From assembly GCA_030390025.1 (NCBI GenBank), contig CM059431.1, positions 121,770,001-121,834,000 on the forward strand: 64,000 nucleotides of DNA, written 5' to 3'. The notes under the pieces were generated by a model. It was not told where the DNA came from. It worked only from the letters and a program-made list of their open reading frames with translations, and searched no databases. Both the position numbers and the translations under genes were made by a program. This stretch comes from Squalus acanthias. Taxonomy: Eukaryota. Positions 2,661 to 56,863 of the stretch are shown here, in pieces (the stretch's first letter is position 1; every line of letters begins with the position of its first letter).

Positions 2661-3348
2661 CAAGAGTGGTGGGGTTGCAGACAATGCTCCCTCTAAGGTG
2701 CGTGGCTGTGTGGCCATGCACCGATCCGTAAACTCCCATGCACTTCAATTCAAAGGCCACGACAGAGAGCTGGACAGCGGAGAGGGGTCAAATACACAAT
2801 GGTCTGAAAATCCAGACAGAGAGTCATTTACGAGTCTTACGACCTCAGAGCTGAACTCAATTGGAAATTAACAAAAGAGTTGGGGCAGTGGCCACATGGT
2901 AAGGGGGTGGGTGAAGTGTCGGTTGTGTCGCTGTCTGAGAAGTTCTACATGCTCCAGGCAGAAGCTGTAGAGGAGCCGACCTCAGCCAGCTCCCAGCAGT
3001 TGTGGTGGATTGGAAATCCTAACTCACCACGTAGGTTTGGACCCTACCCGCGTCGGATCAACTTATTCTTTCATATAGTTCACCTTGGAGATCCCTGGCC
3101 CCAAAACTGTTCAGCCAGATCCCATGGTGATGAGGGCAGCATGCCCCCTTCTCCTTTGGCACCATGGTTCCGGGGGCCTGTTTTACCGAAACTCAGCACT
3201 CACTGCGGGGCTGGATGAAGCTTTAAAAATCGGTGGGAGAGATCGGTAAATAACCACGTGTACCTCATCTTCTTAGTAAACCGATTGCAAGTGAGTGAGC
3301 TGCTGAGTTTTACCCACAACAGGTGAGTAAGAAAGTACTTTGTTGCTG

Positions 3349-4032
3349 TCAAATGGCAGTGATATGGTCGCACAACAACTGCACATTAAGTGAGTGGTAG
3401 CCTTTGCGGTTACAGAACATCTTAGCATTGTTACACGGTGCCCATAAAGCCACGTGTGTGCGGTCGATGGCACCCTGCACCATGGGGAAGCCCGCCATCC
3501 TTGCAAAGCCACATACACACTCATTCAGAGAGAAGACAATGAAGTCCCTTCTCCTGGATTGGAGAGTCTCTGTGACCTCCCGGATGCAGCGATGGATGGT
3601 GAATTGGGAGATATTAGCTATGTCTCCTGCTGCAGGCTGGAAGGAGCCACTGGCAAAAAAGTTGAGGGCCACGGTGACCTTGAAGGCCACTGGGAAAGCC
3701 ATTGTTGCCCTGCTCTGCAGGTCTGGTTCCAGGAGGTGGCAGAGTTCTGTGACCACCTCCTTGGTGAAGCGGAGCCTCCTAGTACACTGCTCCTTGCTTA
3801 AGTGGAGGTAAGAGAAGTGCTCTCGGAAGACCCTAGGTGAATAAGGCCTCCTGCTGAGAGCCCTCCTAGCCTTCCTCCTCCTCCTCCAACATCTGTGAGC
3901 ATCTTGTCCTCTTCTTCGCTGCCTCCACTCCATCTCCTGAAGATACTCGAGCGTGAGGGGAACTGCAAGTACAGCTCCCATGACTGGGAGCAAGTGGTGT
4001 GAGCAGAAGCCTTTAAATGATGTTAAACCCAC
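3349..4032 (-). pseudogene. Truncated Harbinger (HARBI1-like) transposase, N-terminal half
   Basis: Motifs VTVALNFFASGSFQ, GFPMVQGAIDRTHV and NRKGYHSLNVQLLCD; the C-terminal half is missing. Confidence 0.85.
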
Positions 4033-4343
4033 TCTTGTGCCTTTATTCTTTCAGATAATCAGCCACCGCCTGCTCAGCCTGTCCCTCAGCCTTGTAAGGG
4101 ATTCCTGACCCTGCGTGTCTCGCAGCCTGTGAGATTCACGCGGCTCTGTGCAGCCTGTATGTCAGTGCGGGTCTAGGCCTGGTTGCCTGTTCTGGTCTCC
4201 AGCCAGTCTGGGAACACTAGACACACCTGTGAGTGGTTCGAATCACTCTCCCTTACGGTTCTAGACACTGGACTTAGATGCGAGAGCAGTAATGGAGATA
4301 AAACTCATGTAGACTTGGTTTGAATGGTACGAAATGGAAAATC

Positions 4344-4349
4344 TTTATT
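4344..4349 (-). terminator. Putative poly(A) signal AATAAA in the 3' LTR
   Basis: tttatt on the plus strand, about 250 nt from the LTR 3' end; present in all three LTR copies. Confidence 0.55.
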
Positions 4350-5146
4350 GCATGATACTTAAGATTATGAAATACATGTCATAAGCACAGATTAATGACA
4401 GTACAATCTTACAAACAGTTATATAGTCGATCTTAGGGAAACGAGGAACGAACGGCACAAAATAAATAGGGGCACACATTACAAATATCCTTAATCCTTA
4501 AACCCTCCCCTATCAATATCTATCCTAAACTAGATTCGTAGGATCTCGAGACTCATGCTCACCACTCGTGATAACTCGGAGAAATTCCGAATAGCTGATC
4601 GGATGTTTTTCACCGCAGCACCCACGTGTCGGTCAGGAGATCTCCTGGTCCCACTTGTTTACTTGCTTCTGCTGCTCCGGCTAGCAGGCTGGACCGTCTG
4701 CTGTGATGAAGACCTGTGTTGGTTGGTTTAACAGGTACTCTTGGAGCACAGTTGTCAATATCGTCGATGCAATATGTTTCGTTATAAGTTCGAAGAAGTC
4801 TTCCTGGCGAGGAAAACTTGGCTAATCGACCTACAGGCGCGGTCGGGATTTACTGACCGTGGCGATGGATATGGTCTTCCTCTCTTCTCATCTCATCTCA
4901 TCTCATCTCATCTCATCTCGGGCCTTTGGTTCCGCTGCCAGTTACCAACATAGGTCTTCGTTACGCGACACGAGGTAGATCCGAACGGATCAGAAAGTTC
5001 AACAGTCTTTTCAGAAGAGGCAACAGGCAAGCAGAAGCCCAACTACGAGTACACAGGAGCAGCCACGAGGTTACGAATCGACCGGATAAAAGCACAGGAG
5101 CAAGAGAGCAAGAGCAAGAGAGCGAATGGACGGTTTGGAGCCTGCA

Positions 5147-5215
5147 ATTATAGTGCAAAAATCTTCCGTTTCCCGCCCAACTATAATGTCCATTCTTTTG
5201 TTTAAGGTTTGGCGC
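5147..5215 (-). promoter_or_regulatory. Putative LTR promoter: TATAAT, GC box and E2F-like sites (equivalent copy in the 5' LTR at about 12865-12933)
   Basis: Minus strand GGGCGGGAAACGGAAG...CACTATAATTGC followed by a pyrimidine-rich initiator-like tract; TTTCCCGC and TTTGGCGC match the TTTSSCGC consensus. Confidence 0.45.
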
Positions 5216-5754
5216 CCAAATGTCTTGTATGGGTGATCTCCGTTCTTAATGGGTTTCGGGGTTACTCGTAAATGTCTGAGTACCTGTTAATATTTCTCCC
5301 ATTGTTAAATCGGTCGGTGTTCTCCCTGGAGGGGTTTGGGGCTTCCAAGTGTCCTGTATAACTACCTGCTAACGGCTCTCTCATCGTAGAGTCGTTGGGA
5401 TTTTACATATTAATGTCTTTTGGATGGGCCCTTGATTACTCGGTACAATGGCTTTCCTTTGTACCTGGGAGACCGATTCCAGTATCTATGTTTATACTGC
5501 AAACCCATAATGTCTCGTGTATTATCTTCACTGTGCTGAATCTTAATCGATCTTGCACAAATGTTTATTGGAACGCCATCTTGTCTGCCTGTTGAAAAAG
5601 TCTAGAATGTTCTGTCACGAGGTGCGGCGGCCATTTTACAGGCTGCTTGTGTCCACTTTAAACTTGCCAGCATTCTACTGAAATAAAAGCTGTTTGAACG
5701 AAACTTTGTGTTTTCTCCTTATTAATAAAATCGCGATATATTGCGAATTCTACA

Positions 5755-6207: not shown

Positions 6208-8559
6208 TTACACGGTGCTTTCATCGTGCACGCGCACGTAACGTTCTCGCCACTCTCCCGTGTTTTCATGCTTGGTGAGGCGTTTGTCTCTTTTACAATG
6301 TACGACCAATAGGTACACTACAATGAAAACTTGGCATACGACTAAAATGTGGGAGGCTATTCTGATCCATGAAGGTACTTCAATATTGGTGAACAGATTC
6401 CACCACGGTGGAACTACTATATCCAGAATGTCTGTTCCTATTTCGACAGTTTTCTGCTCTAATGTATAAAAATGTTTCTGTGATACCGCGACGGCTTTCA
6501 AAAGCTTGGTGAGGTGTTCAGGGAGAGGGGGAATGAGGTATCCAAAATGCGCGACGAATTGCTGCAAGTCGGTGAAATTCTCTTTTACTGTGAGATGAAC
6601 AGTGGATGGTTCAGGGATTGGGATAATTCGCTGTTGTGCTACTTGAACTTCCGCCCTGGGTTTAAAACAGAAACTGCTGTCACTCACCGGACACCGGCTA
6701 CGGTTTCCATGCTGGTAGTGTTGCGCTGCAGTGGTAACACAATATGTTCCACCCCCGATGTATGCTACCTGCGGAGGCACATGATCTTGTGCCATTGCCT
6801 CCATGGTGCAATTCATGGACTTGGCGCCAGCCGTTCTGAACCCGCACTGTGGTGTTAAAAAGGCATTCAAGTGCTGGGGGCACAGTATTATGTGTGCTCC
6901 CCTGCCACGACAACCAGAGAGATCTGTACCTGTCATCGTTTGCTCCCAGCGGATGACGTAAGGTGGAACCGCTGCATAACGAATGTGGGCTCCCCCCTGA
7001 ATGACACCGATGTTCTCTACCCGATATACCGGGGCGGGCTTTGCTGTGTCGCCCAAAACCGGCATACGTAAAACTATACCCATAATGGTATGGTTTGATC
7101 GTCCGCAGTCCACGGGGACTGGGTATGCTTCTGAAGCTAGCCTGAGCTGGCACGGGCTTAATGCGTTCTGAAAAGGGTGGAGCGCCCGTAGGTGTTTGTT
7201 ACTTATCCAGGACGGAACCAAACCTTGTTTTAAATCCTCCAAATTACTGCGGCCCTCGCCCAGTAACCACGCCCCGTAAAGCACGCACACCTCGTTCTGC
7301 GCAGCTTGATCGGATGCATTCCGATCTTCCCTAATCAGGGCATTTACCGTCTTTGCATGTTTCTCCAACTCTGCTATAATTTCCTTTAAATGGAGGGTCA
7401 TGGCTTGGTCCTCGTGTAGACCCGACCCTACCACTTTATTCTCATCTGTTAGAATGTCCTTTAATTGTGTCTTTAAACCATTAATCTGGGTCTGCAGCTC
7501 CACACTGTCTAGAGCGTTGACCACAGATGTACCTGTGTTAAAAGCAGTGAACGCATCGTTCACCAAACCCCTTCTTTGCCTCCCTACTTGATCCAAAACT
7601 TCCTGTGGCACGGTGTACAAACTTGTTTTATCAATTTCCGCGAAATCGAATTCGTAAAATTGTCTGAACATCTTGGTCAACAGGACCTGGTACAACTGTT
7701 CCGTCTTTTTGGGGCACCACTCTGGTAACCGTACCTCAGTGAGATTTAAAATCACCGAGGCCACCGCGTAATGTACCCCCTGAAATAGTATCTGGTCTGT
7801 GGGGACCAGTACCAAACCATTCCCGGGTCCCTTACTAGCTTTAGGGCACCCTTCTTCCTCAGCTAGAACCACCGGAATCGTGGGCGGGGCTTTGCGTGGG
7901 CGCGTAATGAGTTCAGTGGCATTTACTGGGATTGGGGAGAATGGGGCTCCGCACCCCCTGGTGCTCGCATCCCACCTCATCCCCTGTCCGTTATCCTGCC
8001 ATTGATTAATAAAAAATATGGAGATGCCTTTGGGGCAAACGTACTTTGACCCCCACATACATACATAAATTCCCTCATCCGGTTCCCACCATTTGTCCCA
8101 ACAGACTTTCACTTGTCCGTCTGTCCCCGTAATTGTCCGATGGGTATTATTACCCAGTCGTTCCCACTCGACCGAAGAGTTTCTCATAGTTTTGCTCAGC
8201 TTTCGCAGCCACCACCATCGGCTCAATGGGACCTTCCCACTACAAGTCAAACAAATCCGTTTGCCGACGGTGACGCTGATCCTGGGTGCGATGATCCTTA
8301 CTTTGGGGCACAGTAAAGAAGTCTCTTGGTAGGCAAACCCCGATGTGCTAGAATACTCCGTTGAGTTCGTTCCCAGCCATCCTGGCCACCTTCCCTTGTG
8401 GAAATAGGTGCTGGTCTCCTCTGCCTCCCGTCTTCCGGTCCCATCCACCGCGATGGGGGCCGTGTCCCCGGAACATCCAAACACCACGACATCCTTGGTG
8501 CGGCCTCGATAGGCCAATCCACATCCGATTGCCACGAGCAATACTAGAATTCGTTCCAT
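6208..8559 (-). CDS. env: Envelope glycoprotein (783 aa from the signal-peptide ATG): Ig-like domain, furin site, class I fusion protein with F-like Cys-rich region, TM anchor
   Basis: Signal peptide MERILVLLVAIGCGLA; C..W..DEGIYVC; RQRR|GLVNDAF at 7570-7581; heptad repeat; Cys-rich block TDLSGC...LCPQ...C...C; TM segment ILVVCQVFIVVYLLVV with a basic tail; several N-x-S/T sites; ORF is open. Confidence 0.9.
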   Translation of the reverse strand: MERILVLLVAIGCGLAYRGRTKDVVVFGCSGDTAPIAVDGTGRREAEETSTYFHKGRWPGWLGTNSTEYSSTSGFAYQETSLLCPKVRIIAPRISVTVGKRICLTCSGKVPLSRWWWLRKLSKTMRNSSVEWERLGNNTHRTITGTDGQVKVCWDKWWEPDEGIYVCMWGSKYVCPKGISIFFINQWQDNGQGMRWDASTRGCGAPFSPIPVNATELITRPRKAPPTIPVVLAEEEGCPKASKGPGNGLVLVPTDQILFQGVHYAVASVILNLTEVRLPEWCPKKTEQLYQVLLTKMFRQFYEFDFAEIDKTSLYTVPQEVLDQVGRQRRGLVNDAFTAFNTGTSVVNALDSVELQTQINGLKTQLKDILTDENKVVGSGLHEDQAMTLHLKEIIAELEKHAKTVNALIREDRNASDQAAQNEVCVLYGAWLLGEGRSNLEDLKQGLVPSWISNKHLRALHPFQNALSPCQLRLASEAYPVPVDCGRSNHTIMGIVLRMPVLGDTAKPAPVYRVENIGVIQGGAHIRYAAVPPYVIRWEQTMTGTDLSGCRGRGAHIILCPQHLNAFLTPQCGFRTAGAKSMNCTMEAMAQDHVPPQVAYIGGGTYCVTTAAQHYQHGNRSRCPVSDSSFCFKPRAEVQVAQQRIIPIPEPSTVHLTVKENFTDLQQFVAHFGYLIPPLPEHLTKLLKAVAVSQKHFYTLEQKTVEIGTDILDIVVPPWWNLFTNIEVPSWIRIASHILVVCQVFIVVYLLVVHCKRDKRLTKHENTGEWRERYVRVHDESTV

Positions 8560-8845: not shown

Positions 8846-9994
8846 TTAAATTCTGAGAAGGCTGCTGCGAGCTCTTCCCGACGGTGGGAGGGCACTGACC
8901 CTTCCCTCTGATCTGCCGCAGCCTGTTGCTGCGCTGACCCTTCCCTCTGATCTGCCGCAGCCTGTTACTGCTGCGATGTGGCCGGTCTGTACCTGGGTTA
9001 TCTTAACCTGAAATTTTCGCCTTGGGGCAGTCTGGGGACATGACCACATCCTCCTGGGCTGGGGTTCTCTGCTTGACCTACGGGGAGTTGCTATGGGCGG
9101 GGGTTCCGTGACGGACGGACCGGGTTCCGAGACCTCCATCGGGATGACCTGGGGTTCCATCACAGTCGCCGGCTCCGCCTCCGCTGACTCCGCCTCCCTA
9201 ACCTCGGGGCTGGCAGTTCGTGGCTCCGCCCTGCTCGGCCCAGCAGGCGGCCCTTCACTCGTGATCTCTGCCTCCCCTGAGGACTGGACGTTCAAAGCGG
9301 GCGGCCACATCTCTGGGAGCCACACCGGTACTCTCTGTGCTCCTATAGCGGCTGGCCCTGCCTCCTCTAGCTCCTCCCTCCTGTCCTCGGGACCTGCAGC
9401 TTGTGTGTCCACCCTGTGTGGATCTCTACCTACAGCCCCCATTCCCTCCAGACCGTTCCTCAGGAACCACCCGTCATCATCACTATGCTCATCTGCACTA
9501 TCCTCATCTGACCAGGGTACCCTGAATTCTTCCTCATCTAACCCCCAATTCCAGAAAAACGCTGCACGATCGTCCGGGATGTCCCTTCCCCTGATGCAAG
9601 CTGCTATGCCTGCCTGTGTGCCTTGTGGTCCTACCTGGGGCTGTGCTTTCCCATTGGCGGGATTTACCCCTGTAGTTTTCCCCTGCGCACCTGGCTGGTA
9701 CAGTTTGCATTGGTTTACATCCTCATACTCCCGGCTTTTGGCTACCCTGTAGGCTGCTTTTATCTCTCTAAGCTGCGCTTCTAGCCTGAGCACGTCTAAC
9801 TTTCCCATTGCTCGGGCGTTCTCCTCCCGCAGGGCCTGCTCTCTAAGCTGCCCTTCCAGCCCATCTATTTTCCCTAATAAGCGGGCGTTCTCCTCCCGCA
9901 AGGCCTGCTCTTTTAACCTGGCCTCCTCACCGCAGACCCCCTCCTGTGCGTGTCTTTTAAAAGGACACAGGTAGGCAGGCTGCGTGGGCTCTAG
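8846..9994 (-). CDS. Unknown 382-codon ORF in the pol position, in frame with gag after UGA-CUAG (coiled coil, acidic, Pro/Glu-rich, basic tail)
   Basis: 31 stop-free codons (LEPTQPAYLCPFKRH...) link the gag stop to ORF 8846-9901 in the same frame; no protease, RT or integrase motifs. Confidence 0.7.
   Translation of the reverse strand, partial: LEPTQPAYLCPFKRHAQEGVCGEEARLKEQALREENARLLGKIDGLEGQLREQALREENARAMGKLDVLRLEAQLREIKAAYRVAKSREYEDVNQCKLYQPGAQGKTTGVNPANGKAQPQVGPQGTQAGIAACIRGRDIPDDRAAFFWNWGLDEEEFRVPWSDEDSADEHSDDDGWFLRNGLEGMGAVGRDPHRVDTQAAGPEDRREELEEAGPAAIGAQRVPVWLPEMWPPALNVQSSGEAEITSEGPPAGPSRAEPRTASPEVREAESAEAEPATVMEPQVIPMEVSEPGPSVTEPPPIATPRRSSREPQPRRMWSCPQTAPRRKFQVKITQVQTGHIAAVTGCGRSEGRVSAATGCGRSEGRVSALPPSGRARSSLLRI
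8895..8966. repeat. 39-bp in-frame tandem duplication encoding TGCGRSEGRVS twice
   Basis: ctgacccttccctctgatctgccgcagcctgtt at 8895 and 8934. Confidence 0.9.
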
Positions 9995-11806
9995 TCATTG
10001 GGTACTATTAGACGGTCCTGCGGCACCTACGGGGCCGGTTGCGACCGCCACCTGTCCACGCGCATTCAAGACCAGCTTGCGCATGGCTCCTAACACTGCT
10101 TCGAGGTCGTCGGGAGGGGTGGGTGCCTTGGCTTCCTTAGCCGGGACAGGCGCCTGGGCTCGGACCGCGGGATTTTTATCCTTGGAATCCTTCCAAGGGT
10201 TCCTGCAATGCTTGCGCCAGTGCCCTGTCTTCCCACACCCGTAACAAGCATTACTTGCCTGTGGGGCGCGATTACCCTCCTGATGCCACTCTCTTTGATA
10301 CGGGGCTGCGGGTCGTACCTCATGTACTCTTCCCTTAAGGGGACGTGTTGCCATACCCCTTATATTGCGATAACCTAACGTGAGTCGATTCAAGACCGAC
10401 TCTTCCGTAATGTTGGGGTCATTGGGATCAAACCATGCTTTTGCCTGTTCTCTAACGGCTGGTAAACTGTTGGCTATTATGCACCTAAGCCAATGAGTTA
10501 AAGCTAAACCTTCCACATCTTCGCGCTCGGGCGCACCTAGACAGCTGCGCTCATATACTGGCCACAGCCTGTCGGCAAAAACCTTCGGGGGTTCTCCCTC
10601 CATCTGCACTGTCTGTCCCACTCTAGCAAACGGACCTTCGTCGTTCGCCCCCAACACTTCCAGGACCTCATTCTTTAATTCCTCATAACTCTTGGTTCCC
10701 CTCTTGCTCTCGCCTGAGAGACACTGAAGGACCGAGCTGTCTAATGAGAACAGCAGCATTTTTGCTGTCTCCCCATCATCGCAGCCGTTAATGGCTGCGG
10801 CTTGCTCAACTTCTCTGAAATGTACGGAAGGGTCGTCTGCCTCGGTCAGCTTCCGTACGTGATTTATCATAGCTCTCAGCTGATGTGAACTGTGAGGCAA
10901 CACCAGCTGTCCGAGGAGATCCCCCGGTTCTTCCCCACCGTTTCTGCTTGGGCCCCTTTTAATACCCGTTACTGGATACAACGATCCCTTTTCTACTTCC
11001 TTTTCAATGGGCTCTTTTGTTTCTCCCATTGCTTCCTCCCTAACCCAGGTTTCTGAATAGCTGGGTGGCGCGGAGGGCGCAGTGGCTATTACTTCTTCTG
11101 CTTTACTTGGTGGGGATTTTCTAAATCTCTCATTTACTAGCGGCTGGTGCGCCGACGGATTGATAAGGCACACCATGCCGTTCGCATTGTTCACGGCCTT
11201 TTTGAGGTGCTCTATCTCCCTTTGGCAGGCGCTATGATCGGCTCCCTGAAACTTATCCTCAAGGGCCAACTTATATGCCGCCCTAACCCCCATTAAGCTC
11301 TCTTCTTGAGTTCTTATCTGGGCAGCTTGGCGGTTACATCTTTCCTTTAACCTGCTCTCATTCAATTTTGCCTCAGTGACCTGGCACTCGAGATAATCTA
11401 TCCTTGTTTTAAGGTGACTGGAGACTTCCTGGCTTTCTTGGTGTAACTCATTTAAATTCTTAATGAGCACCTCCCCTCCAGAAACCTTCTCCTCCATTTC
11501 TCCCTCTAAATGACTGATTCGAGCTACTAGCGCTGTAATGGTCTGGTTTGAAATCTGAACCTGCCTTTTGTAACACATAAGCCAGACTGCTTTCTCAAGT
11601 GTCTTTTTATGTTCTTTACTATCTGTCCACCTTTCAGCTGCCTCTAGTGGGCTCTTATCCGCTAACAATTCACTTATCCATTTCTTAGTTAGATTAACCT
11701 TTCCAAACACATAATCCGCTATCTTTTCCTGCATAACATTTCGTACAGTCATTCCAAAATCTAACACACTACCCTCTCGCTGCCAGTGTCCTGCCGCGGT
11801 CGCCAT
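9995..11806 (-). CDS. gag: Gag polyprotein (603 aa from the ATG at 11806)
   Basis: N-terminal coiled coil; PSAPPSY; capsid MHR-like QMEGEPPKVFADRL; zinc knuckle CYGCGKTGHWRKHC at 10205-10246; the start codon could instead be a downstream Met. Confidence 0.92.
   Translation of the reverse strand: MATAAGHWQREGSVLDFGMTVRNVMQEKIADYVFGKVNLTKKWISELLADKSPLEAAERWTDSKEHKKTLEKAVWLMCYKRQVQISNQTITALVARISHLEGEMEEKVSGGEVLIKNLNELHQESQEVSSHLKTRIDYLECQVTEAKLNESRLKERCNRQAAQIRTQEESLMGVRAAYKLALEDKFQGADHSACQREIEHLKKAVNNANGMVCLINPSAHQPLVNERFRKSPPSKAEEVIATAPSAPPSYSETWVREEAMGETKEPIEKEVEKGSLYPVTGIKRGPSRNGGEEPGDLLGQLVLPHSSHQLRAMINHVRKLTEADDPSVHFREVEQAAAINGCDDGETAKMLLFSLDSSVLQCLSGESKRGTKSYEELKNEVLEVLGANDEGPFARVGQTVQMEGEPPKVFADRLWPVYERSCLGAPEREDVEGLALTHWLRCIIANSLPAVREQAKAWFDPNDPNITEESVLNRLTLGYRNIRGMATRPLKGRVHEVRPAAPYQREWHQEGNRAPQASNACYGCGKTGHWRKHCRNPWKDSKDKNPAVRAQAPVPAKEAKAPTPPDDLEAVLGAMRKLVLNARGQVAVATGPVGAAGPSNSTQ
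11788..11805 (-). other. Primer-binding site, tRNA-Arg(UCG)
   Basis: TGGCGACCGCGGCAGGAC, 5 nt downstream of the 5' LTR, complementary to the vertebrate tRNA-Arg-TCG 3' end GTCCTGCCGCGGTCGCCA as I recall it. Confidence 0.85.
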
Positions 11807-11810
11807 TTTC

Positions 11811-13472
11811 TGTAAGGGATTCCTGACCCTGCGTGTCTCGCAGCCTGTGAGATTCACGCGGCTCTGTGCAGCCTGTATGTCAGTGCGGGTCTAGGCCTTG
11901 TTGCCTGTTCTGGTCTCCAGCCAGTCTGGGAACACTAGACACACCTGTGAGTGGTTCGAATCACTCTCCCTTACGGTTCTAGACACTGGACTTAGATGCG
12001 AGAGCAGTAATGGAGATAAAACTCATGTAGACTTGGTTTGAATGGTACGAAATGGAAAATCTTTATTGCATGATACTTAAGATTATGAAATACATGTCAT
12101 AAGCACAGATTAATGACAGTACAATCTTACAAACAGTTATATAGTCGATCTTAGGGAAACGAGGAACGAACGGCTCAAAATAAATAGGGGCACACATTAC
12201 AAATATCCTTAATCCTTAAACCCTCCCCTATCAATATCTATCCTAAACTAGATTCGTAGGATCTCGAGACTCATGCTCACCACTCGTGATAACTCGGAGA
12301 AATTCCGAATAGCTGATCGGATGTTTTTCACCGCAGCACCCACGTGTCGGTCAGGAGATCTCCTGGTCCCACTTGTTTACTTGCTTCTGCTGCTCTGGCT
12401 AGCAGGCTGGACCGTCTGCTGTGATGAAGACCTGTGTTGGTTGGTTTAACAGGTACTCTTGGAGCACAGTTGTCAATATCGTCGATGCAATATGTTTCGT
12501 TATAAGTTCGAAGAAGTCTTCCTGGCGAGGAAAACTTGGCTAATCGACCTACAGGCGCGGTCGGGATTTACTGACCGTGGCGTTGGATATGGTCTTCCTC
12601 TCTTCTCATCTCATCTCATCTCATCTCATCTCATCTCGGGCCTTTGGTTCCGCTGCCAGTTACCAACATAGGTCTTCGTTACGCGACACGAGGTAGATCC
12701 GAACGGATCAGAAAGTTCAACAGTCTTTTCAGAAGAGGCAACAGGCAAGCAGAAGCCCAACTACGAGTACACAGGAGCAGCCACGAGGTTACGAATCGAC
12801 CGGATAAAAGCACAGGAGCAAGAGAGCAAGAGCAAGAGAGCGAATGGACGGTTTGGAGCCTGCAATTATAGTGCAAAAATCTTCCGTTTCCCGCCCAACT
12901 ATAATGTCCATTCTTTTGTTTAAGGTTTGGCGCCCAAATGTCTTGTATGGGTGATCTCCGTTCTTAATGGGTTTCGGGGTTACTCGTAAATGTCTGAGTA
13001 CCTGTTAATATTTCTCCCATTGTTAAATCGGTCGGTGTTCTCCCTGGAGGGGTTTGGGGCTTCCAAGTGTCCTGTATAACTACCTGCTAACGGCTCTCTC
13101 ATCGTAGAGTCGTTGGGATTTTACATATTAATGTCTTTTGGATGGGCCCTTGATTACTCGGTACAATGGCTTTCCTTTGTACCTGGGAGACCGATTCCAG
13201 TATCTATGTTTATACTGCAAACCCATAATGTCTCGTGTATTATCTTCACTGTGCTGAATCTTAATCGATCTTGCACAAATGTTTATTGGAACGCCATCTT
13301 GTCTGCCTGTTGAAAAAGTCTAGAATGTTCTGTCACGAGGTGCGGCGGCCATTTTACAGGCTGCTTGTGTCCACTTTAAACTTGCCAGCATTCTACTGAA
13401 ATAAAAGCTGTTTGAACGAAACTTTGTGTTTTCTCCTTATTAATAAAATCGCGATATATTGCGAATTCTACA
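11811..13472 (-). repeat. 5' LTR (1662 bp)
   Basis: Direct repeat of 4093-5754, adjacent to the PBS. Confidence 0.97.
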
Positions 13473-16400
13473 GCCTCCCAGTGGCAGCAACGCTGGAGAG
13501 GAAGAGGAACAAGAAGCCAGAGCCTCACTGCTTGTGTCTCCCAAGGGCGAAAGGTCCAATAATGGGGTCACGCATTTGCTGGAGGGGGACCTAGGAAATG
13601 GGTCTGATGTGGGTGAAGCTCCGGGCCCTAGTGGGCTGCAGCAACACCACGGGAAAAGGGAAGCTTAGGGGCTATCTCCCTGGAGGGTGAGTGCACATGC
13701 GAGCTCTGCTGCACAGGACTCAGATGAGGACCTTGATGTGGAGGCGTTGACCACACAGGCGATGAGCATGCACACTGAGCTCATGGGTGCAATGGCAAGG
13801 GTGCCCGAGAGCATGGATGCACTGGCTAGGAGCGTGGAGGAGTCTGCCTCCAGCATTGCACCCATCTCTGCGCAAACCATCGATCCCATCCTTGGCAGTT
13901 TGCAAAGGATGGTTGCCTCGCAGAGAGACCGTGGGGACCCAGACCTCATGCCACGTGTCATTGGTGAGGTGGCAGCAGCTATTGCAGCACAGCCCAAAGC
14001 AACACAACAGCTTAGTGCTGTAATGGATGCAGTGGTTGGTGACATCTAATCTCAGACTGCTCTCATGCAGTCTCAGATTGATGCCATGCAAGCGCTGACT
14101 GCTGCCATCGTCGCTGGGTCGCCCTCAGTCCACCGGGGATCTCATGGTGCCGCAGCAGGCCAGCAATCTGTGCTTGAGCAGATTGCTCCGGATGCTGAGG
14201 TGCTGCCCCGAGGAAGTGGCAGTGTGTCGGTCGAGCAGGAAGGTGCTGTCCTCTCTCAGGATGACAGCATTCCTGCTCCCACCACTGCCACTCCGCCATT
14301 GCACTTGCCGCAGCCTGTAACCCAGCCATCCCGGACTGCTGCCGCCCATGCTGAGTTTGTGCAGTCTGCAGCTGGGCCTTACAGCCCTGAGGTGGCTGAG
14401 GGCGTCCTGCAAGGCCATCTGCAATCTCTGGCTCCCAGACTCAGCAGCCTTCCCCCAGCCTTGCCGCAGCCACTGGGGCCACATTACTGTGGAGCAGTAG
14501 GGTTGGGAGGGGGGGAATTGCAAAGGGGAGGGCAATCATTGAGGAAGGGCGAGTAAATAATACGTTATTAACAAATGGAGGGAATGTGTGTAAATAATTT
14601 GATGTGTTTGTAAATATATTGTTGAGTTTGGTAACAAATAGTTCCGTTTGCTAAGAAATATTTGTGTTTATTGATAAATTGTTGTGTTTGTTTATTAATT
14701 GGTTATGTTTCCTAAGAGAGAGTTGTGCATAATAATAAATATTTAATTCGACGTTGCACATTTTGTGATGTTTCTCATTTGAGCTTTGCCCGGTGATAGG
14801 GGCTGTGAGCTGGCTGTAATGATGTGGTTGTTCTACGCAAAGGCCATGTGCTGTCTCATTTATTGGAAGCGCTGTGTAATGAGGTGATCACGAATGGCCC
14901 TTGTAGAAGCAACATTGAGTGGCTCCCTCCTCTGTTGCTGCTGCTCCTCCTCCTCTTCATCCTCCTCCTCTGCCTCCTCCTCCTCCTTTCTTTCTTCCTC
15001 CTCCTGAGGTAGACCTCCTCAGTGGTAATAGCTGGGCGCTCGGAATGGCCAGGTTGTGCAGCATGCAGCACACAACAATGAAAAGGGAGACTCGATCAGG
15101 GGAGTACTGCAGGGTTCCTCCAGAGCAGTCAAGGCAGTGGAACAATTGCTTTAGCTCCCCGATAATCTGTTCGATCAGGTTTCTGGTGGTGCTATGGGTG
15201 TCATTGTACGCGTGCTGAGCAGGAGTGTTGGGGTTGTGGAAGGGTGTCATCAGCCAGGTTGCAAGTGGATAACCAATGTCTCCGAGCAGCCATCCGCAAG
15301 CTTCACATGGTGGGTTGAACAGTGTTGGGACTCCGGTCATTGACAGGGAGGATGCGCTGTCTGTGGTCGCACACCAACTGAACATTCAGAAAGTGGTAGT
15401 CTTTGTGGTTACGGAAGACCTCTGCATTGTGATGAGGTGCCCGCAATGCCACGTGGGTGCAGTCAATGGCGCCCTTAACCATGAGGAAGCCTGCTATCCT
15501 TGCAAAGCCACATGAGAATTCATCTTGTTTCTCCCTGGTAATGGGGAATGAGATGTACTCCTTTCTCCTTCTGTACAGAATGTCTATCACCTCACGGTTG
15601 CAGCAATGGATGGTGAACTGTTAAATGTTTGCAATATCCCCTGTTGAAGCCTGAAAGGAACCACTGGCGTAGAAATTGAGAGCGACAGTGACCTTCACTG
15701 CCACTGAGAGAGATGGCCTGGTCCTGAGATGAGGCTGGAACTCTCGCTGCAGGAGGTGGCAAAGCTCTGTGACCACCTCCTTGCTGAAGCGGAGCCTTCT
15801 AAAGCACTGCTCCTCTGACAGATGAATGTAGGAGAACTGCTCCCGGAATACGCTGGGAGGGTAAGGCCTCCTGTTGAGAGCCCTGTTGGCCCTCCTCCCT
15901 GTGGCCATGTTTTCCAATCTTTCTCTCTTCCCCCGCTGCCTCTGACAGTGATGCTGGAGGGTGAGGTCCAGTGCCAGTACAGCCCCCATTAAGTGTTGGA
16001 AATGTTGCACTATCAAATGTAACACAAATGAAAGTGATAAATTTTTCTCAGGATCAAAACTCCTTCAAGTAGAAAAAGCTCAGATCAGTAAAAACACCCG
16101 CCTGCTTCTGTCAAACTGACAAGGCAGCATTGTTTGCTGACAAAAAAAAAACCCTGAAGTTCACGACTTTAAATAGATTTCCTGCAACTCCCAGCCGACT
16201 GCAAACCGCCTCCTCTACCTGTTGTTCCTAATGGCAGGCGCTGAGGCAGGGGTCGACAATAAATTTCCGGTCTGGGGTGCTACCGGGGCGATGCACGGCC
16301 AGATGATGTTACGATCTCCAGCCGCAGGCAGGCATGGCGGTAGTGGTAAGCGCCACCGCAAACCGCCAGGTGAATTTTGCCGGCGGCGCCAACATCGCTG

Positions 16401-17270: not shown

Positions 17271-18698
17271 CTCTTGCACAAATTTGAATTTTTATGTTTG
17301 TTAACAGCTTATTAAGCAGAAATTAAAGTTGAATGTGTGAATTTGCTCACAAATGTACTTCATTTCAACAGTGCATTAATTTCTTTAATTTATGCCTGAT
17401 GATAAAATACCTGCGAAAGCTGCCAGAGTTTTAATAGAGGCAATATTATGAAATTGCATCCCTGGTGTGATGCCTTGTTTGTATCTGTAAGGCATCACAC
17501 CAGGGATGTCATGTAATTTGGCACTGCACCCTATGATTTTCCTTCCATTAGTCATTGCTGCTAGTGCTTCAAGTGAAAGAGGCTCCATGGCAGAAGTATG
17601 AGCTTGTAAAATTATCCCTATTGTCTAAAGGAGGCGTATTTTGGGAACATCGCTCCATGGATTTGGAGCAAATCTGTTTTCATTAGATATTTTGAAGATA
17701 GGAGGAGCAATAAGGGCAAAAAACTACAGCTTGGGAGAATCGCAATTAAAAGAGAGGGACATAGAGGACCTGCTCCTACCTAATGCAGGGTAGATAGCAG
17801 CAAAATGTCTCCCAGCTGGTCTTCAGCAAGGAATGATGTGTAAGGAGGCTGTGCATCGATACAGTTGCAATTTCAGACCTGTATCTGCTGCTTGAATCTG
17901 ATCTACATCCATAGAATATTATCTGGAGAGCATTATTTGTGAAAGTGAAAATGACCACCCAAACTTAATTTCTACAATACAGGCACTTCCAGACACCACC
18001 TGATCAACCAGTGTGCAGTTCACTGATAGAGTGCAAAGGTAGCAGGTGCTCTTTTAACAATATGTTGGCTTACAAGTTCAGTAGTGTAATGCAGTGAGAG
18101 CTGGAAAGGCAAACCCAGTCCTAAGGCATTCCCCTAGTACAAGACAACAGTGATTGCAGTCATTTCATCATGTCTGAATCTTCAGGCAGTGCCCTTCCTT
18201 TTATTAATAGAAATGGGTCCGGCTCCCTCAATGTTCACATAGTATGCGATCACTGGCAATAATTATACGTTAATGCTCATTTTGCAGGGAGTGGTCACAA
18301 TGGCAACATCACAGGAAAAGCAGTCCAACCGTGGCTAACAAGAGAAGTTAAAGATAGTATTAGATCAAAGGAAGAGGCTTATAATGTTGCCAAAAAGAGT
18401 AGTAAGCCTGAGGATTGGGAGGATTTTAGTATTCAGCAAAGGAGGACCAAGAAATTGATAAAGAAAGGGAAAATAGAATATGAGAGTAAACTAGCGAGAG
18501 ACATAAAAACAGACTGTAAAAGCTTCTGTAGGTATGTAAAAAGGAAAAGATTCGTGAAAGTAAATGTGGGTCCCTTATAGGCTGAGACAGGAGAAATTAT
18601 AATGGGGAATAAGGAAATGGCTGAGAAATTAAACACATACTTTTTTGTGTCTGTCTTCATGGAAGAAGATGCAAAAAACTTACCAGAAATAGTGGAGA

Positions 18699-20296
18699 AA
18701 CATAGAAACATAGATAGAAACATAGAAACATAGAAAAATAGGAGCAGGAGTAGGCCATTCGGCCCTTCGAACCTGATCTGCCATTCAATATGATCTTGGC
18801 TGATCCTCTATCTCAATACCATATTCCCGCTCTTTCCCCATACCCCTTGATGCCTTTTGTGTCTAGAAATCTATCTATCTCCTACTTAAATATATTCAGT
18901 GACTTGGCCTCCACAGCCTTCTGTGGTAGAGAATTCCACAGGTTCACCACCCTCTGAGTGAAGAAATTTCTCCTCATCTCAGTCCTAAATGTCCTACCCC
19001 GTATCCTGAGACTGTGACCCCTCGTTCTAGACTCCCCAGCCAGGGGAAACATCCTCCCTGCATCCAGTCTGTCTAGCCCTGTCAGAATTTTATACATTTC
19101 AATGAGATCACCTCTCATTCTTCTAAACTCTACTGAATACAGGCCTAGTAGACCCACTCTCTCCTCATACGACAGTCTTGCCATCCCAGGATCAGTCTGG
19201 TGAACCTTCGCTGCACTCCCTCCATGGTAAGCATATCCTTTCTTAGGTAAGGAGAACAAAACTGCACACAGTACTCCAGGTGTGGTCTTACCAAGGCCCT
19301 GTATAACTGTAGTAAGACATCCTTGCTCCTGTACTCAAATCCTCTTGCAATGAAGGCCAAAATACCATTTGCCTTCCTAACTGCTTACAACACCTGCATG
19401 TTTGCTTTCAGTGACTGGTGTACAAGGACGTCCAGGTCCCTTTGTACATCAACATTTCACAATCTATCACCATTTAAATAATACTCTGCCTTTCTGTTTT
19501 TCCGACCGAAGTGGATAACTTCATATTTATCCACGTTATACTGCATCTGCCATGTTTTTGCCCACTCACTCAACTTGTCTAAATCACCTTGAAGCCTCTT
19601 TGCATCCTCCTCACAACTCACAATCCCACCTAGTTTCGTATCGTCAGCAAACGTGGAAATAATACATTTGGTTCCCTCATCCAAATCATTGATATATATT
19701 GTGAATAGCTGGAGCCCAAGCACTGATCCCTGCGGTACCCCACTAGTCACTGCCTGCCACCCCGAAAAAGACCCATTTATTCCTACTCTCTGTTTCCTGT
19801 CTGTTAACCAATTTTCAATCCATGCCAGTGTATTACCCCCAATCCCATGTGCTTTAATTTTGCACACTAACCTCTTATGTGGGACTTTATCAAAGGCCTT
19901 CTGAAAATCCAAATACATCACAACCACTGGTTCTCCTTATCTATTCTACCAGTTACATCCTCAAAAAACTCCAGTAGGTTTGTCAAACACAATTTCCCTT
20001 TCATAAATCCATGTTGACTTTGTCTAATCCCGTTGATATTTTCTAAGTGTCCTGTTATCACATCCTTTATAATCGACTCCAGCATTTTCCCTACTACTGA
20101 TGTTAGGCTAACCGGTCTGTAGTTCCCTGTTTTCTCTGTCCCTCATTTTTTAAATAGTGGGGTTACATTTGCCACCCTCAAATCTGCAGAAACTGTTCCA
20201 TTATCTATAGAATTTTGGAAGATGACAACCAATGCATCCACTATTTCCATGGCTACCTCTTTTAGTACTCTGGGATGCAGATTATCAGGCCCTGGG
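18699..20296 (-). mobile_element. Inner CR1 LINE, 5'-truncated
   Basis: RT motifs YLDFQKAFDKV, SGVPQGSVLG, FADDTKL and RPHLEYCVQF; (TTCTATGT)n tail at 18699-18735. Confidence 0.92.
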
Positions 20297-21624
20297 GAAC
20301 CAAGGATCTAGCGAAAATGAGGAACTGAAAGAAATTAGTATTAGTAAAAACAAATACTGGGGAAATTTATGGGACTGAAAGCCAATAAATCCCCTGGACC
20401 TGATGGCCTACATCCTAGGGTTCTAGAACGGTTCCCGCGGATTGGAAGATAGCAAATGTAACCCCACTATTTAAGAAAGGAGGGAGAGAGAAAACGGGGA
20501 ACTACAGACCAGTTAGCATGACATCAGTAATAGGCAAAATGCTAGAATCTATTATTAAGGATGTGGTAACAGGGCACTTAGAAAATAAAAATAAGATTGG
20601 GCAGAGTCAACACGGATTTATGAAAGGGAACTCGTGTTTGACTAATCTGTTTTTTGAGGTTGTAACTAGCAGAATAGATAAGGGGGAATCAGTGGATGTG
20701 GTGTATTTGGATTTTCAGAAGGCATTCAATAAGATGCCACACAAGAGGTTATTAAACAAAATTAGGGCTCATGGGATTGGGGGTAATATATTAGCATGGA
20801 TTGAGATTGATTAACGGACAGAAAACAGAGAGTAGGAATAAACGGGTCATTTTCGGGTTGGCAGGCTGTAAGTAGTGGGGTACCACAAGGATCAGAGTTT
20901 GGGCCTCAGCTATTCACAATCTATATCAATGATTTGGATGAGGGGACCAAATGTAATATATCCAAGTTTGCTGATGATACAAAGCTGGGTGGGAATGTAA
21001 GTTGTGAGGAGGATGCAAAGCGGCTTCAAAGGGATATAGATAGGCTAAGTGAGTGGGCAAGAACATGGAAAATGGAATATAATGTTGAGAAATGTGAAGT
21101 TATCCACTTTGATAGGCAAAATAGAAAAGCTGAGTAGTTTTTAAATGGTGAGAGATTGGGAAATGTTGGTATTCAGAGAGACCTGGGTGTCCTTGTACAC
21201 GAATCACTGAATGTTACTATGCGGGTACAGCAAGTACTTAAGAAAGCAAATGGTATGTTGGCCTTTATTACAAGAGGATTTGAGTATAAGAGTAAAGACG
21301 TCTTACTGCAATTATATAGGGCCCTGGTGAGACCACACCTGAAGTATTGTGTACAGTTTTGGTCTCCTTACCTAAGGAAGGTTATACGTGCCATAGAGGG
21401 AGTGCAACAAAGGTTCACCAGACTGATTCCTGGGATAGGGGGGATTGTCCTATGAGGAGAGATTGAGTAGACTAGGCCTATATTCTCTAGAGTTTAGAAG
21501 AATGAGAGGTGATCTCATTGAAACATACAACATTTTTACAGGGCTTGACAGGGTAGATGCAGGGAGGATGTTTCCCCTGGCTATGGAGTGTAGAACCAGG
21601 GATCACAGTCTCAGAATAAGGGTC

Positions 21625-21760
21625 ATGATGTGGAGATGCCGACATTGGACTGGGGTGGACAAAAATGAGAAGTCGCACAACACCAGGTTATAGTCCAACA
21701 GATTTATTTAATTTTACAAGCTTTCGGAGCTGTCGCTCCTTCTTCAGGTAGGGTAGCTGT
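21625..21760 (-). mobile_element. Penelope-like element terminal fragment with a minimal hammerhead ribozyme core
   Basis: Interrupts the CR1 between LRIR and GQPFRTEM; minus strand CTGAAGA-A-GGAGC-GACA-GCTCC-GAAA-GCTT at about 21718-21747. Confidence 0.65.
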
Positions 21761-22299
21761 GAGGGGTCAGCCATTTAGGACTGAGATGAGGAGAAATTTC
21801 TTCACTCAGAGGGTGGTGAACCTATGGAATCCTCTAACCCAGAGGGCTGTGGAGGCTCATTTGTTGAGTATATTCAAGACAGAGATCGATAGATTTTTGA
21901 CTATTAAGGGAATCAAGGGATATGGGGATAGTGCAGGAAAGTGGAGTTGATGTAGAAGACCAGCCATGATCTTATTGATTGGCGGAGCAGGCTCGAAGGG
22001 CCGATTGGCCTACTCCTGCTCCTATTTCTTATATTCTTATGTTCTTATAATACAAGTGGAGAAATGTTGTGTACCGTTTGAGGTACAAAGCCCAAGTTTT
22101 CACATGTCATGGCCACTCTTGATTTGCCAGCTTTTTTTTTGGTGGGAAGGATGGTGTGGGGGGTACGGTTGATTGTCTGTTATTTTTTAAGCTGCTGGCC
22201 AGCTTTTGCTAGTTTTCTATGTTGTACGTATGAAATGAATGAACAACCTTTCTCATCTTCTTCTAATCAGATGTGACTTTTCTATTTTGTTGTAATAGT

Positions 22300-25019: not shown

Positions 25020-26642
25020 GGTGAAGCACTCCTCGATACGCTAGTCTATCAGCGCTCTGGTATAGAGGGGCACTGGTGGTCACTGCCTCTCTTCCTCCTG
25101 CTCCTCCTCCTCTTCCAGCTCCTTCTCCTCCTCCTATTCCTAGTCCTCCCCCTCTTCCTGTTCCTGGTCCTCCTCTGCACATGTTGCTGAATAGGATGTG
25201 GTGAAGGCTTATCCCTCATGATGGTGAAGTTGTGGAGCATGCAACAGACAATGATCTGGATACCTGTTTGGGGGTGTAGAGCAAGGCTCTTCCGGAACAG
25301 TCTAGGCAGCGGGAGCATTGCCTGAGCACACCAATTGTTTGTTCAATTCTGTTCGATGTGGCAGCATGACTTTGGTTTAGGTGTGCTGTGCACTGTGCAC
25401 AGCTTCCTGACAGTATTCATGAGCTATTTCCAGAGGGGATAGCCCTTGTCACCCAATAGCTAGCCTGCGGCCTGGTTATAATAAAGCTGGCACTGAGAAC
25501 TGGCACAGGATGAAAGAGTCATGACTGCTGCCAGGATAACGAGCACAGTCCTGCATAATGCACTGTCTGTGGTCGCAAACTAGCTTTCCGTTGAGGAACT
25601 GAAATCCCCTTTGATTGATAAAGATGCCAGGCTGGTGATAGGGAGCACCCAAGGCTAGGTGTGTGCAGTCAATGGCACTTTGCATCTGGGAAAGCCTGCC
25701 ATGTGGGCGAGACCAAGTGCTATTTTGCCCTGCTTTGCTCTGTCCATAGGCAAGGAGATGTAAGTGTTCCTTGGCGTAGAGAGCCTTGGTAACCTCCCTG
25801 ATATATCGGTGTACTGCGAACTGGGAGATGTGGCTGATGTCATCTGTTGCAGCCTGAAAGGAATCTGTTGCATCAAAGTTGAGGGCCATGGTAACCTTGA
25901 CAGCCACAAGCAGTGCTGTCCATGTCTTGGTGCGAGGCTCGAGTTGTGGCTGCAGCAGGTGACATAGCTCAGTGATATGCTACTTGGTGAAACGAAAGAG
26001 CCTGAGAAATTGCTCCTGAGTAAAGTTAATGTAGGAGAAGTGCTCCCTGAAGACCCTCTGTAGATACGGCCTCCTACGCAGTGCCCTCCTCCTCCTCCCT
26101 CTTCTAGCAGCTGTTTCTGCTCTGTGGTGTTTTCCTTGCTGCTCCCCCTCATCTACCAGTCCCGAAGGTAGCCCGATGAGACCACCCATGTCTGCAGCTA
26201 AGCTCTTTCTGAGGTAAACAACATCAGTGCAACATCAGCAAAATCTTGCTCTGTTTATACAAAGTGAACTTTCCAAAGTGATAAAACACACCAAAAACAT
26301 CCAGAATTTGAGTAGCAGCCTAAAATGAGAAACCAGCAACTAACCTGTAAGTACTGCATGATCCCCTTAAATAGTGCTGGCGAGGTGGCCTTCCGGTTAG
26401 TGCCATGTTGTGAATGAAGCGCTGGGACAATCATAAATGGAGACAGGGTCCTGCAAGATGCGCAGGACACTAATTTGAATCAGTTATTCTGGGCTTTAAA
26501 AGTTTCTGATGTGCAGTCCTGCCACCAGCGCATCTTCCGTTAGCAATATGGTGGTTGGCGCACTTCCTGTCCGTCATATTGGGAGCTTAGTATGCCGGTT
26601 AACACCCGAAAATCGAGCGCTGTGCAGCCAAATTTCTAGGCC
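25020..26642 (-). mobile_element. Decayed Harbinger: transposase pseudogene plus terminal region
   Basis: Motifs AVKVTMALNF, SAIDCTHL, ARYPGSSHDSFIL and VCCMLHNFTIMR; ends in AATTTCTAGGCC. Confidence 0.85.
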
Positions 26643-27113: not shown

Positions 27114-28811
27114 TGTAGAATTCGCAATATATCGCGATTTCATTAATAAGGAGAAAACACAAAGTTTCGTTCAAACAGCTTTTATTTCAGTAGAATGCTG
27201 GCAGGTTTAAAGTGGACACAAGCAGCCTGTAAAATGGCCACCGCACCTCGTGACAGAACATTCTAGACTTTTCAACAGGCAGACAAGATGGCGTTCCAAT
27301 AAACATTTGTGCAAGATCGATTAAGATTCAGCACAGTGAAGATAATACACGAGACATTATGGGTTTGCAGTATACACATAGATACTGAAATCGGTCTCCC
27401 AGGTACAAAGGAAAGCCATTGTACCGAGGAATCAAGGGCCCATCCAAAAGACATTAATATGTAAAATCCCAATGACTCTACGATGAGAGAGCCGTTAGCA
27501 GGTAGTTATACAGGACACTTGGAAGCCCCAAACCCCTCCAGGGAGAACACCGACCGATTTAACAATGGGAGAAATATTAACAGGTACTCAGACATTTACG
27601 AGTAGCCCCGAAACCCATTAAGAACGGAGATCACCCATACAAGACATTTGAGCGCCAGACCTTAAACAAAAGAATGGACATTATAGTTGGGCGGGAAACG
27701 GAAGATTTTGCACTATAATTGCAGGCTCCAAACCGTCCATTCTCTCTCTTGCTCCTGTGCTTTTATCCGGTCGATTCGTAACCTCGTGGCTGCTCCTGTG
27801 TACTCGTAGTTGGGCTCGCTCCTGCTTGCCTGTTGCCTCTTCTGAAAAGACTGTTGAACTTTCTGATCCGTTCGGATCTACCTCGTGTCGCGTAACGAAG
27901 ACCTATGTTGGTAACTGGCAGCGGAACCGAAGGCCCGAGATGAGATAAGATGAGATGAGATGAGAAGAGAGGAAGACCATATCCATCGCCACGGTCAGTA
28001 AATCCCGACCGCGCCTGTAGGTCGATTAGCCAAGTTTTCCTCGCCAGGAAGACTTCTTCGAACTTATAACGAAACATATTGCATCGATGATAACTGGACT
28101 GTGCCCAAAGTAACTGGAACGTGAAAACATATCGTATCGACGATATTGACAACTGTGCTCGAAGAGTACCTGTTAAACCAACCAACACAGGTCTTCATCA
28201 CAGCAGACGGTCCAGCCTGCTAGCCGGAGCAGCAGAAGCAAGTAAACAAGTGGGACCAGGAGATCTCCTGACCGACACGTGGGTGCTGCGGTGAAAAACA
28301 TCCGATCAGCTATTCGGAATTTCTCCGAGTTATCACGAGTGGTGAGCATGAGTCTCGAAATCCTACGAATCTAGTTTAGGATAGATATTGATAGGGGAGG
28401 GTTTAAGGATTAAGGATATTTGTAATGTGTGCCCCTATTTATTTTGTGCCGTTCGTTCCTCGTTTCCCTAAGATCGACTATATAACTGTTTGTAAGATTG
28501 TACTGTCATTAATCTGTGCTTATGACATGTATTTCATAATCTTAAGTAACATGCAATAAAGATTTTCCATTTCGTACCATTCAAACCAAGTCTACATGAG
28601 TTTTATCTCCATTACTGCTCTCGCATCTAAGTCCAGTGTCTAGAACCGTAAGGGAGAGTGATTCGAACCACTCACAGGTGTGTCTAGTGTTCCCAGACTG
28701 GCTGGAGACCAGAACAGGCAGCAAGGCCTAGACCCGCACTGACATACAGGCTGCACAGAGCCGCGTGAATCCCACAGGCCACGAGACACGCAGGGTCAGG
28801 AATCCCTTACA
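27114..28811 (+). mobile_element. Solo LTR (1698 bp) of the same family as 4093-13472, in the opposite orientation
   Basis: Reverse complement of the proviral LTRs; TGTAG...TTACA ends; ACAT TSD at 27110-27113 and 28812-28815. Confidence 0.97.
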
Positions 28812-55702: not shown

Positions 55703-56863
55703 CTAGAAGCGGCTTGCTATTAGTCGTTGACGGACGGCCCTTGCAGTTTGACCATTGTGGGCCGCCCTCCTGCCTTGGTGCTGCTGATGATCATCGTCCT
55801 CGTCCTCTTCCTCCTCTTCCTCCTCCTCCTCTGGTGGTGCTACAAGGCCTGGTGGCATTGGCTGGGTCCTGAGGATTGCCATGTTGTGCAACATGCAGCA
55901 CACGACTACGAAGTTCGAAACTTGCTCAGGCGAGTACTGCAGGGCTCCTCCGGAATGGTCCAGACAGCGGAACCGTTGTTTCAGCACGCCGATTGTGCGC
56001 TCAATAATGTTCCTGGTTGCTTGATGGCTTTCATTGTACCGCAGCTCAGCAGGGGTGTTTGGCGTACGGAGCGGTGTCATCAGCCAGGTGCTCAATGCGT
56101 ACCCCTTGTCCCCCAGAAGCCAACCAACTGGCTGATGCGGTGCCTCGAAAACTTCTGCCACAGTAGTCTGGCGCAGGATGAAAGCATCGTGGCAGCTGCC
56201 CGGATAGTGGGCATTGACAGCGAGTATCACCTGTCTGTGGTCACAGACCAACTGCACATTCAAGGAATGGAACCCCTTTCTGTTCCTGAATTCCTCTGCA
56301 TTCTCTCGCGGAGCACGCAAAGCCACATGCGTGCAGTCAATGGCGCCCTGCACCATGGGGAAGCCCGCTACCCTCGCAAAGCCCAGAGCACGGTCACGCT
56401 GCTTGTCTGGGGTCATAGGGAAAGAGATGAAGTCTCGTCTCCTTCTGAAGAGGGCATTGGTGACCTGCCGGATGCAGCGATGCACCGCAAACTGGGAGAT
56501 ATTGGCGAGGTCCCCAACAGCAGCTTGGAATGAGCCAGTGGCGTAGAAGTTCAAAGCCACTGTGACCTTCACTGCCACCGACAGAGACGTCCTGGACCTC
56601 AGCTGAGGCTGCAGATCTGGCTGCAGCAGGTGGCAGAGCTCAGTGACCAGCTCCTTGCTGAATCGCAGCCTTCGCAAACACAGCTCCTCGGACATATGGA
56701 TGTAGGAGAGCTGTTCACGATATACCCTGGGAGGGTAAGCTCTCCTGTACATGCGCCTGATGGCCCTCCTCCGTCTGGCCATCATTGCCACTCTCTGTCT
56801 GCGTCTTGGTATCCTCCGATTCAGCTGGAGCAGGACGAGGCCCCCAATCATTGCAGCCCCCAT
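55703..56863 (-). CDS. Intact Harbinger DDE transposase (HARBI1-like, 386 aa)
   Basis: GAIDCTHV, NRKGFHSLNVQLVCD, YPGSCHDAFIL, GDKGY and RNIIERTIGVLKQRFRCL in an uninterrupted ORF. Confidence 0.95.
   Translation of the reverse strand: MGAAMIGGLVLLQLNRRIPRRRQRVAMMARRRRAIRRMYRRAYPPRVYREQLSYIHMSEELCLRRLRFSKELVTELCHLLQPDLQPQLRSRTSLSVAVKVTVALNFYATGSFQAAVGDLANISQFAVHRCIRQVTNALFRRRRDFISFPMTPDKQRDRALGFARVAGFPMVQGAIDCTHVALRAPRENAEEFRNRKGFHSLNVQLVCDHRQVILAVNAHYPGSCHDAFILRQTTVAEVFEAPHQPVGWLLGDKGYALSTWLMTPLRTPNTPAELRYNESHQATRNIIERTIGVLKQRFRCLDHSGGALQYSPEQVSNFVVVCCMLHNMAILRTQPMPPGLVAPPEEEEEEEEEDEDDDHQQHQGRRAAHNGQTARAVRQRLIASRF

Follow-up and report, generated by a model that had tools for sequence, protein, structure and literature searches.

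In a 64,000-nucleotide stretch of the Squalus acanthias genome (the window; GenBank assembly GCA_030390025.1, contig CM059431.1, positions 121,770,001 to 121,834,000 of the forward strand), we analyzed the envelope protein (Env) of an endogenous retrovirus (ERV), which probably carries a selected module of immunoglobulin (Ig) fold on an F-type retroviral Env. The env open reading frame (ORF; 6208..8559, minus strand, as are all features of the provirus given below) is intact and encodes 783 aa in the order signal peptide, Ig module, Pro-rich linker, core, furin-type site and transmembrane (TM) segment. The putative signal peptide (8509..8559) was assigned by hydropathy and has hydrophobic residues at positions 4-15. 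It is followed by an N-terminal extension that is conserved in this Env group and contains Cys29 (aa 18-83, 8311..8508), the Ig-like domain (aa 84-183, 8011..8310), and a C-terminal extension with Cys203 that leads into the Pro-rich linker (aa 184-237, 7849..8010). The core, identified as F-type by homology, begins at Cys238 with a conserved CP...GP start (6361..7848). It includes a furin-type site, RQRR (aa 327-330, 7570..7581), with a putative role in cleavage before the presumed fusion peptide, and hydropathy predicts a TM segment after it at about aa 734-752 (6304..6360).

A previous sequence-only reading of this DNA had noted Ig motifs at 8040..8305, followed by a Pro-rich linker, and we found all of them present and in frame: the B-strand Cys106, the C-strand Trp116/117, and the motif GxYxC ending at Cys167, 61 positions from Cys106. 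We compared homologues in a 28-row alignment (20 rows from this genome; 7 copies with stops and 4 near-duplicates were removed from the 30 older copies). Of the 26-27 filled rows, 25-27 retain each hallmark residue (Cys, Trp, Gly, and Tyr), and the Asp of the motif is mostly Glu. Six more cysteines (Cys29, 84, 103, 153, 175, and 203) are as conserved as the hallmarks, giving eight conserved Cys within aa 29-203. A strict Ig motif pattern, formulated after the fact, turned up in 12 of 20,000 shuffled sequences.

The Ig fold proposed in the sequence-only reading gained moderate support from sequence and structure searches. Searching the PDB by sequence returned JAM-A and an antibody light chain as the top two matches (E = 0.11), and light chains made up most of the 49 matches. 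In the ESM Atlas, the ten best matches having a family all belong to the Ig clan (scores 0.88-0.90). The predicted structure of the module is all-beta, and Ig-superfamily chains filled the result lists of two structure aligners, led by Ig domains of cell-surface and immune proteins, among them CD147, the T-cell receptor (TCR) V domain, CD8, and the IgNAR V domain. A single-sequence fold of the module was discarded (predicted local distance difference test score 45.7), as its structural matches were uninformative. A structure search of BFVD gave nothing below E = 0.098 and no retroviral Env among the matches listed. In the Pfam scan the domain matched an Ig family (Ig_3, E = 0.016) with a score of 16.1 bits, below the Pfam cut-off of 30; the best homologue reached E = 6.7e-4. 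Taking the predictions together, we consider it very likely that aa 84-183 fold as a divergent Ig-superfamily domain.

The domain is present in proteins of skate and sawshark, the sources of the closest named proteins. We also compared it with six of the 30 older copies, which belong to other subfamilies and were picked for long coverage of the core. Identity to these copies was 71-82% in the core, 58-66% in the domain, and 43-57% in the domain flanks. Synonymous sites within the domain were saturated (proportion of synonymous differences, pS, 0.74-0.80), while the proportion of nonsynonymous differences (pN) was 0.20-0.24, showing that the domain has been maintained by purifying selection.

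The assumption that the fusogen is F-like is likewise supported, through its homology to a lokiretrovirus Env that matches the Pfam family PF00523 and through ESM features. From Cys238 onward, the database holds 51 proteins with matches to all or parts of this Env, and the named ones come from sharks, skate, frogs, and coelacanth. A profile of 30 core relatives matched the Envs of two loci with lokiretrovirus motifs, L181 and L182, with E-values of 2e-23 to 3e-23 (500 shuffles reached 3.4 bits at best), and one of these two Envs matches PF00523 with E = 1.2e-5. The ESM features of the core pointed to Baculo_F and Fusion_gly (0.91-0.92, 196-197 shared). Direct Pfam and PDB searches with this Env (P0001 in our protein set) gave no match to an F protein, and when a profile of the core alignment was run against the PDB, the matches were to coiled coils and a coronavirus spike stalk only, without any F protein. 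The family member L061 matched PF00523 weakly (E = 0.036). A gamma-type Env, also considered, was not supported, as there was no Pfam match to any retroviral TM family.

We then examined what lies ahead of the core in related Envs. In P0037, P0047, L181, L182, and the printed Loki-Xtr Env the core starts directly after the signal peptide, and other relatives have 130-230 residues in this slot. In the frog protein P0019, all 50 matches of the slot were to antibody heavy chains (best E = 0.005). The slot of P0034 matched V-set weakly (E = 0.045) and had no PDB match at E ≤ 1, UniRef names P0013 'Ig-like domain-containing', and P0012 and P0023 hold a different Cys-rich module. This genome also contains, at loci L058-L112, at least two more Env groups that belong to this core family, are older, and have N-terminal modules of their own (the L061 type and the L068/P0013 type). 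Profile-profile comparison gave no link between our module and those of L061, L068, P0013, the frog Envs, or P0034 (4-31 of 40 shuffles scored as well), and the match to the P0012/P0023 module covered 14 columns only, with 0 of 40 shuffles as good. The L061, L068, and P0013 modules were linked to one another via P0013. A quick tree of ten cores, built without bootstrap and with long branches, paired P0001 with P0012 (SH-aLRT 99) and P0034 with the module-less P0037 (97), suggesting that close cores differ in slot content. Hence, the slot ahead of the core is apparently exchangeable.

The sequence-only reading had called the Ig fold 'captured', a claim that our data did not bear out: neither a host donor nor a close host Ig relative was found. 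Profile searches for a donor gene, which would miss distant relatives, returned Env-derived proteins only (2 and 7 matches), and host matches were limited to weak ones to CRTAM and JAM-A. It is plausible that the module was derived from a host Ig gene in the distant past.

What would such a domain do? Since retroviruses possess a single envelope protein, it is Env that must mediate attachment. We favor, with a probability of roughly 55%, the interpretation that aa 84-183 form an Ig-type, appended cell-attachment (receptor-binding) module for the F-type core. Furin cleavage would leave the module on the N-terminal, F2-like subunit, where it could extend outward on the Pro-rich linker. There it may bind a cell-surface protein and thereby help or trigger the core, as the IgV-like receptor-binding domains (RBDs) of the RBD-C class do in gamma-type Env.

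The domain might instead be Ig-like but structural, packing on the F2/F1 head to steady the prefusion state or to aid folding, with the receptor site in the core. The unusually many conserved Trp and Cys residues, including the eight conserved Cys, would suit such a role, as would the higher conservation of the domain than of its flanks, which is atypical of a surface under antibody pressure, and the existence of module-less Envs. We nevertheless regard a structural role as unlikely, because a Pro-rich linker separates module and core and because close relatives of the core carry a different module or none, consistent with a loosely attached unit. Somewhat less probable still is an immune modulator or decoy with no role in entry, which, displayed on virions or on infected cells, would engage an inhibitory receptor or shield the core from antibodies. 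Large DNA viruses carry Ig-domain decoys, the BFVD search contained weak herpes- and poxvirus rows, and the best structural matches (CD147, TCR V, CD8, and IgNAR V) are themselves cell-surface and immune domains. Moreover, the Discussion of Hotzel 2024 (10.1101/2024.03.17.585361) suggests immune evasion as an early gain from a captured RBD. However, our domain resembles no specific host ligand or receptor, and it belongs to the sole envelope protein, at the position of the gamma-type RBD-C. Attachment is favored over a decoy by this position, the linker, the exchange between lineages, and the precedent of gamma-type Env. Least probable is another disulfide-rich beta domain mimicking Ig by chance, perhaps with a CxxC redox motif (Cys103-Cys106), since Ig domains are indicated by a sequence hidden Markov model, by language-model features, and by both structure aligners, the motif arose in 12 of 20,000 shuffles, and the CLTC sequence lies in a beta strand of the model, where its two Cys would presumably point to opposite sides.

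The provirus that encodes the attachment candidate is flanked by long terminal repeats (LTRs) of 1,662 nt each (5' LTR, 11811..13472; 3' LTR, 4093..5754), which differ at four positions, have TG..CA ends, and lie within a 4-bp target-site duplication, GCCT. An assignment to Troyka was rejected on account of these ends and the 4-bp duplication. The primer-binding site (PBS; 11788..11805) is complementary to the 3' end of the host tRNA-Arg(TCG). The pattern of this tRNA had 424 matches genome-wide, and genes for this predicted primer lie inside large tandem arrays with a 1.62-kb period on contig C26 at about 39-42 Mb. The gag ORF (9995..11803) encodes a coiled coil and one CCHC knuckle. It shares its frame with pol and stops at TGA, with CTAG directly after it (window 9991-9997, minus strand). 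TGA-CTAG is a strong readthrough context, and the same junction is present in L026, L027, and L182. Only a pol remnant with the pol start and tail is retained (8846..9994). The copy L026 has a pol with dual RNase H that encodes protease, reverse transcriptase (RT), tether, RNase H, and integrase; relative to it, the provirus in the window lacks about 3.6 kb (protease, RT, RNase H, and integrase). In place of most of pol there is a stretch of about 245 nt with internal repeats that codes for a coiled coil (window 9718-9962, minus strand), and the frame stays open for 382 aa.

The short gag-env spacing is common to many genomic copies, suggesting that a non-autonomous gag+env subfamily has spread. 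In the 3.7-Gb genome, the 150 matches that were scored, out of 5,910 candidates, all cover Env residues 1-204 at 99-100% identity, which points to a young and abundant ERV family. At least half of the sampled words from the env 5' region occur in sequencing runs of six organisms, so near-identical copies may exist in several species; no RNA run was among the runs listed. Contigs from four sequencing runs cover the element, but they cover repeats of a control stretch as well and are uninformative on expression. Several copies on contigs C7, C16, C9, C11, and C23 spaced about 7.7 kb apart correspond to one unit sharing an LTR and represent either tandem proviruses or an assembly duplication. Within the window, a solo LTR of the same family (27114-28811, plus strand) is 94% identical overall and 97-99% in blocks, and has an ACAT duplication. 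The provirus is inserted beside one of several degraded transposase copies (3336-4050, 15022-15898, 25772-26101, and 55852-56772), which we take to be of Harbinger type. The window also contains CR1-like fragments of long interspersed nuclear elements (347-901 and 18263-22039) and a tandem array of 54-nt units (53691-54122).

We placed the element by the RT of L026. Among 37 RTs compared, the nearest was that of record L143 (43.9% identity, 225 bits), which matches the RT of snakehead retrovirus (SnRV) as printed by Wang and Han (PMC7947760). Identity was 34% to three loci with lokiretrovirus motifs and 38% or less to the other 33. The L026 RT carries the motif LPQGF and not the lokiretrovirus motif CPFG. 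Both trees made it the sister of L143 (support 85/63 and 64/53, on long branches), and it fell outside a 100/100 clade of the three loki-motif loci, although joining them was not rejected (approximately unbiased test, p-AU = 0.25). By traits that we chose ourselves and that are no published definition, the element is like L143: both have the tRNA-Arg PBS, the CCHC Gag knuckle, and a protease region that is short (204 and 189 aa, respectively, vs 636). Two traits point toward lokiretroviruses instead, the TGA-CTAG gag-pol junction (the gag stop of L143 is TAG) and the better core score; an F-like Env and a dual RNase H, as in lokiretroviruses, are also present in this family. A search of the viral_contigs set found no loki-motif locus, and a peptide-pattern search found no RT relative. 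In earlier work, none of six cartilaginous-fish genomes yielded lokiretroviruses (Wang and Han, PMC7947760), and the elephant shark was reported to harbor SnRV-related ERVs, with CmiERV lineage I being SnRV-like (Han, PMC4422223). From these sequence data, we tentatively place the element as SnRV-like with a loki-type Env.

Compared with lokiretroviruses, as far as the published accounts covered describe them, this ERV has a homologous Env core, the furin-type site, the dual RNase H, and the in-frame gag-pol junction with TGA-CTAG in common, and it differs in the motif of its RT, in its PBS, in the length of its protease region, and in its Gag knuckle. All three lokiretrovirus Envs examined lack an N-terminal module, unlike this Env. 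SnRV, represented by L143, has the nearest RT and also shares the tRNA-Arg PBS, CCHC Gag, and short protease region. Its Env (L143:6131-9535, plus strand) matches the core profile with E = 1.7e-7 (500 shuffles reached 3.9 bits at best), but is much longer, with the core starting at aa 519 of a 1,134-aa frame, and matches our core worse than lokiretrovirus Env does. The N-terminus of the L143 Env gave weak Ig-like matches to perlecan (E = 0.06) and contactin-3 (E = 0.08) in the PDB and to Pfam V-set (E = 0.16). This segment fits neither motif pattern and is matched by no module profile, and homology to our module was undetected. In the papers searched we found no description of an SnRV-type F-like core with an Ig-like segment. 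Nor did our literature searches, which did not extend to Repbase, most subscription papers, or the bioRxiv supplements, turn up any F-type or SnRV-like Env described as bearing an Ig domain; the word 'immunoglobulin' is absent from the covered text of PMC7947760. We tentatively propose, as an idea somewhat short of even odds, that F-type Envs form one wide family, comprising lokiretroviruses, SnRV, and SnRV-like ERVs of sharks, coelacanth, and frogs, whose slot took up Ig domains several times. If so, a host-type Ig head fused to an F fusogen would do the attachment without a separate H or G protein. SnRV grows in culture and requires Env for spread, according to the portion of PMC12193657 covered; it would then be a living, culturable example with an overlooked F-type core and Ig head, and would offer a candidate receptor-binding domain. 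F-type Env would also reach past lokiretroviruses into a lineage that, judged by its RT, is closer to SnRV.

The F2-furin site-F1 layout of this Env is like that of paramyxo- and pneumovirus F0 (PF00523) and baculovirus and errantivirus F (PF12259). F proteins of these two families are not known to have an appended Ig domain, and paramyxoviruses have a separate attachment protein. Our Env, if the module serves attachment, would show how an F-type protein can bear its own attachment part. The closest parallel lies in gamma-type Envs. In the parts of Hotzel 2024 (10.1101/2024.03.17.585361) covered, IgV-like N-terminal RBDs precede a Pro-rich region and have moved between Envs, and one RBD was captured from host SIRP. 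As far as the accounts covered go, Envs with RBD-C (murine and feline leukemia viruses, Env-Pb(1), and the zebrafish ERV ZFERV) resemble ours in having an N-terminal Ig-fold module, a Pro-rich region, and a fusion part, and modules were gained, lost, and exchanged between Envs in both families. Our module occupies the RBD-C-like position, N-terminal and before the Pro-rich region. On the same accounts, RBD-C lacks the B-F disulfide, whereas our module has both canonical Cys. The host donor is clear for the SIRP-like IgV RBD of Env-Dbi, whereas none was found here. The carrier also differs, being gamma-type SU/TM in RBD-C Envs and an F-type core here. Hence, the design of Ig head, linker, and fusion core is known from gamma-type Env, and the F-type carrier is new; if our interpretation is correct, the modular design seen in gamma-type Env emerged a second time, on an F-type fusogen unrelated to it.
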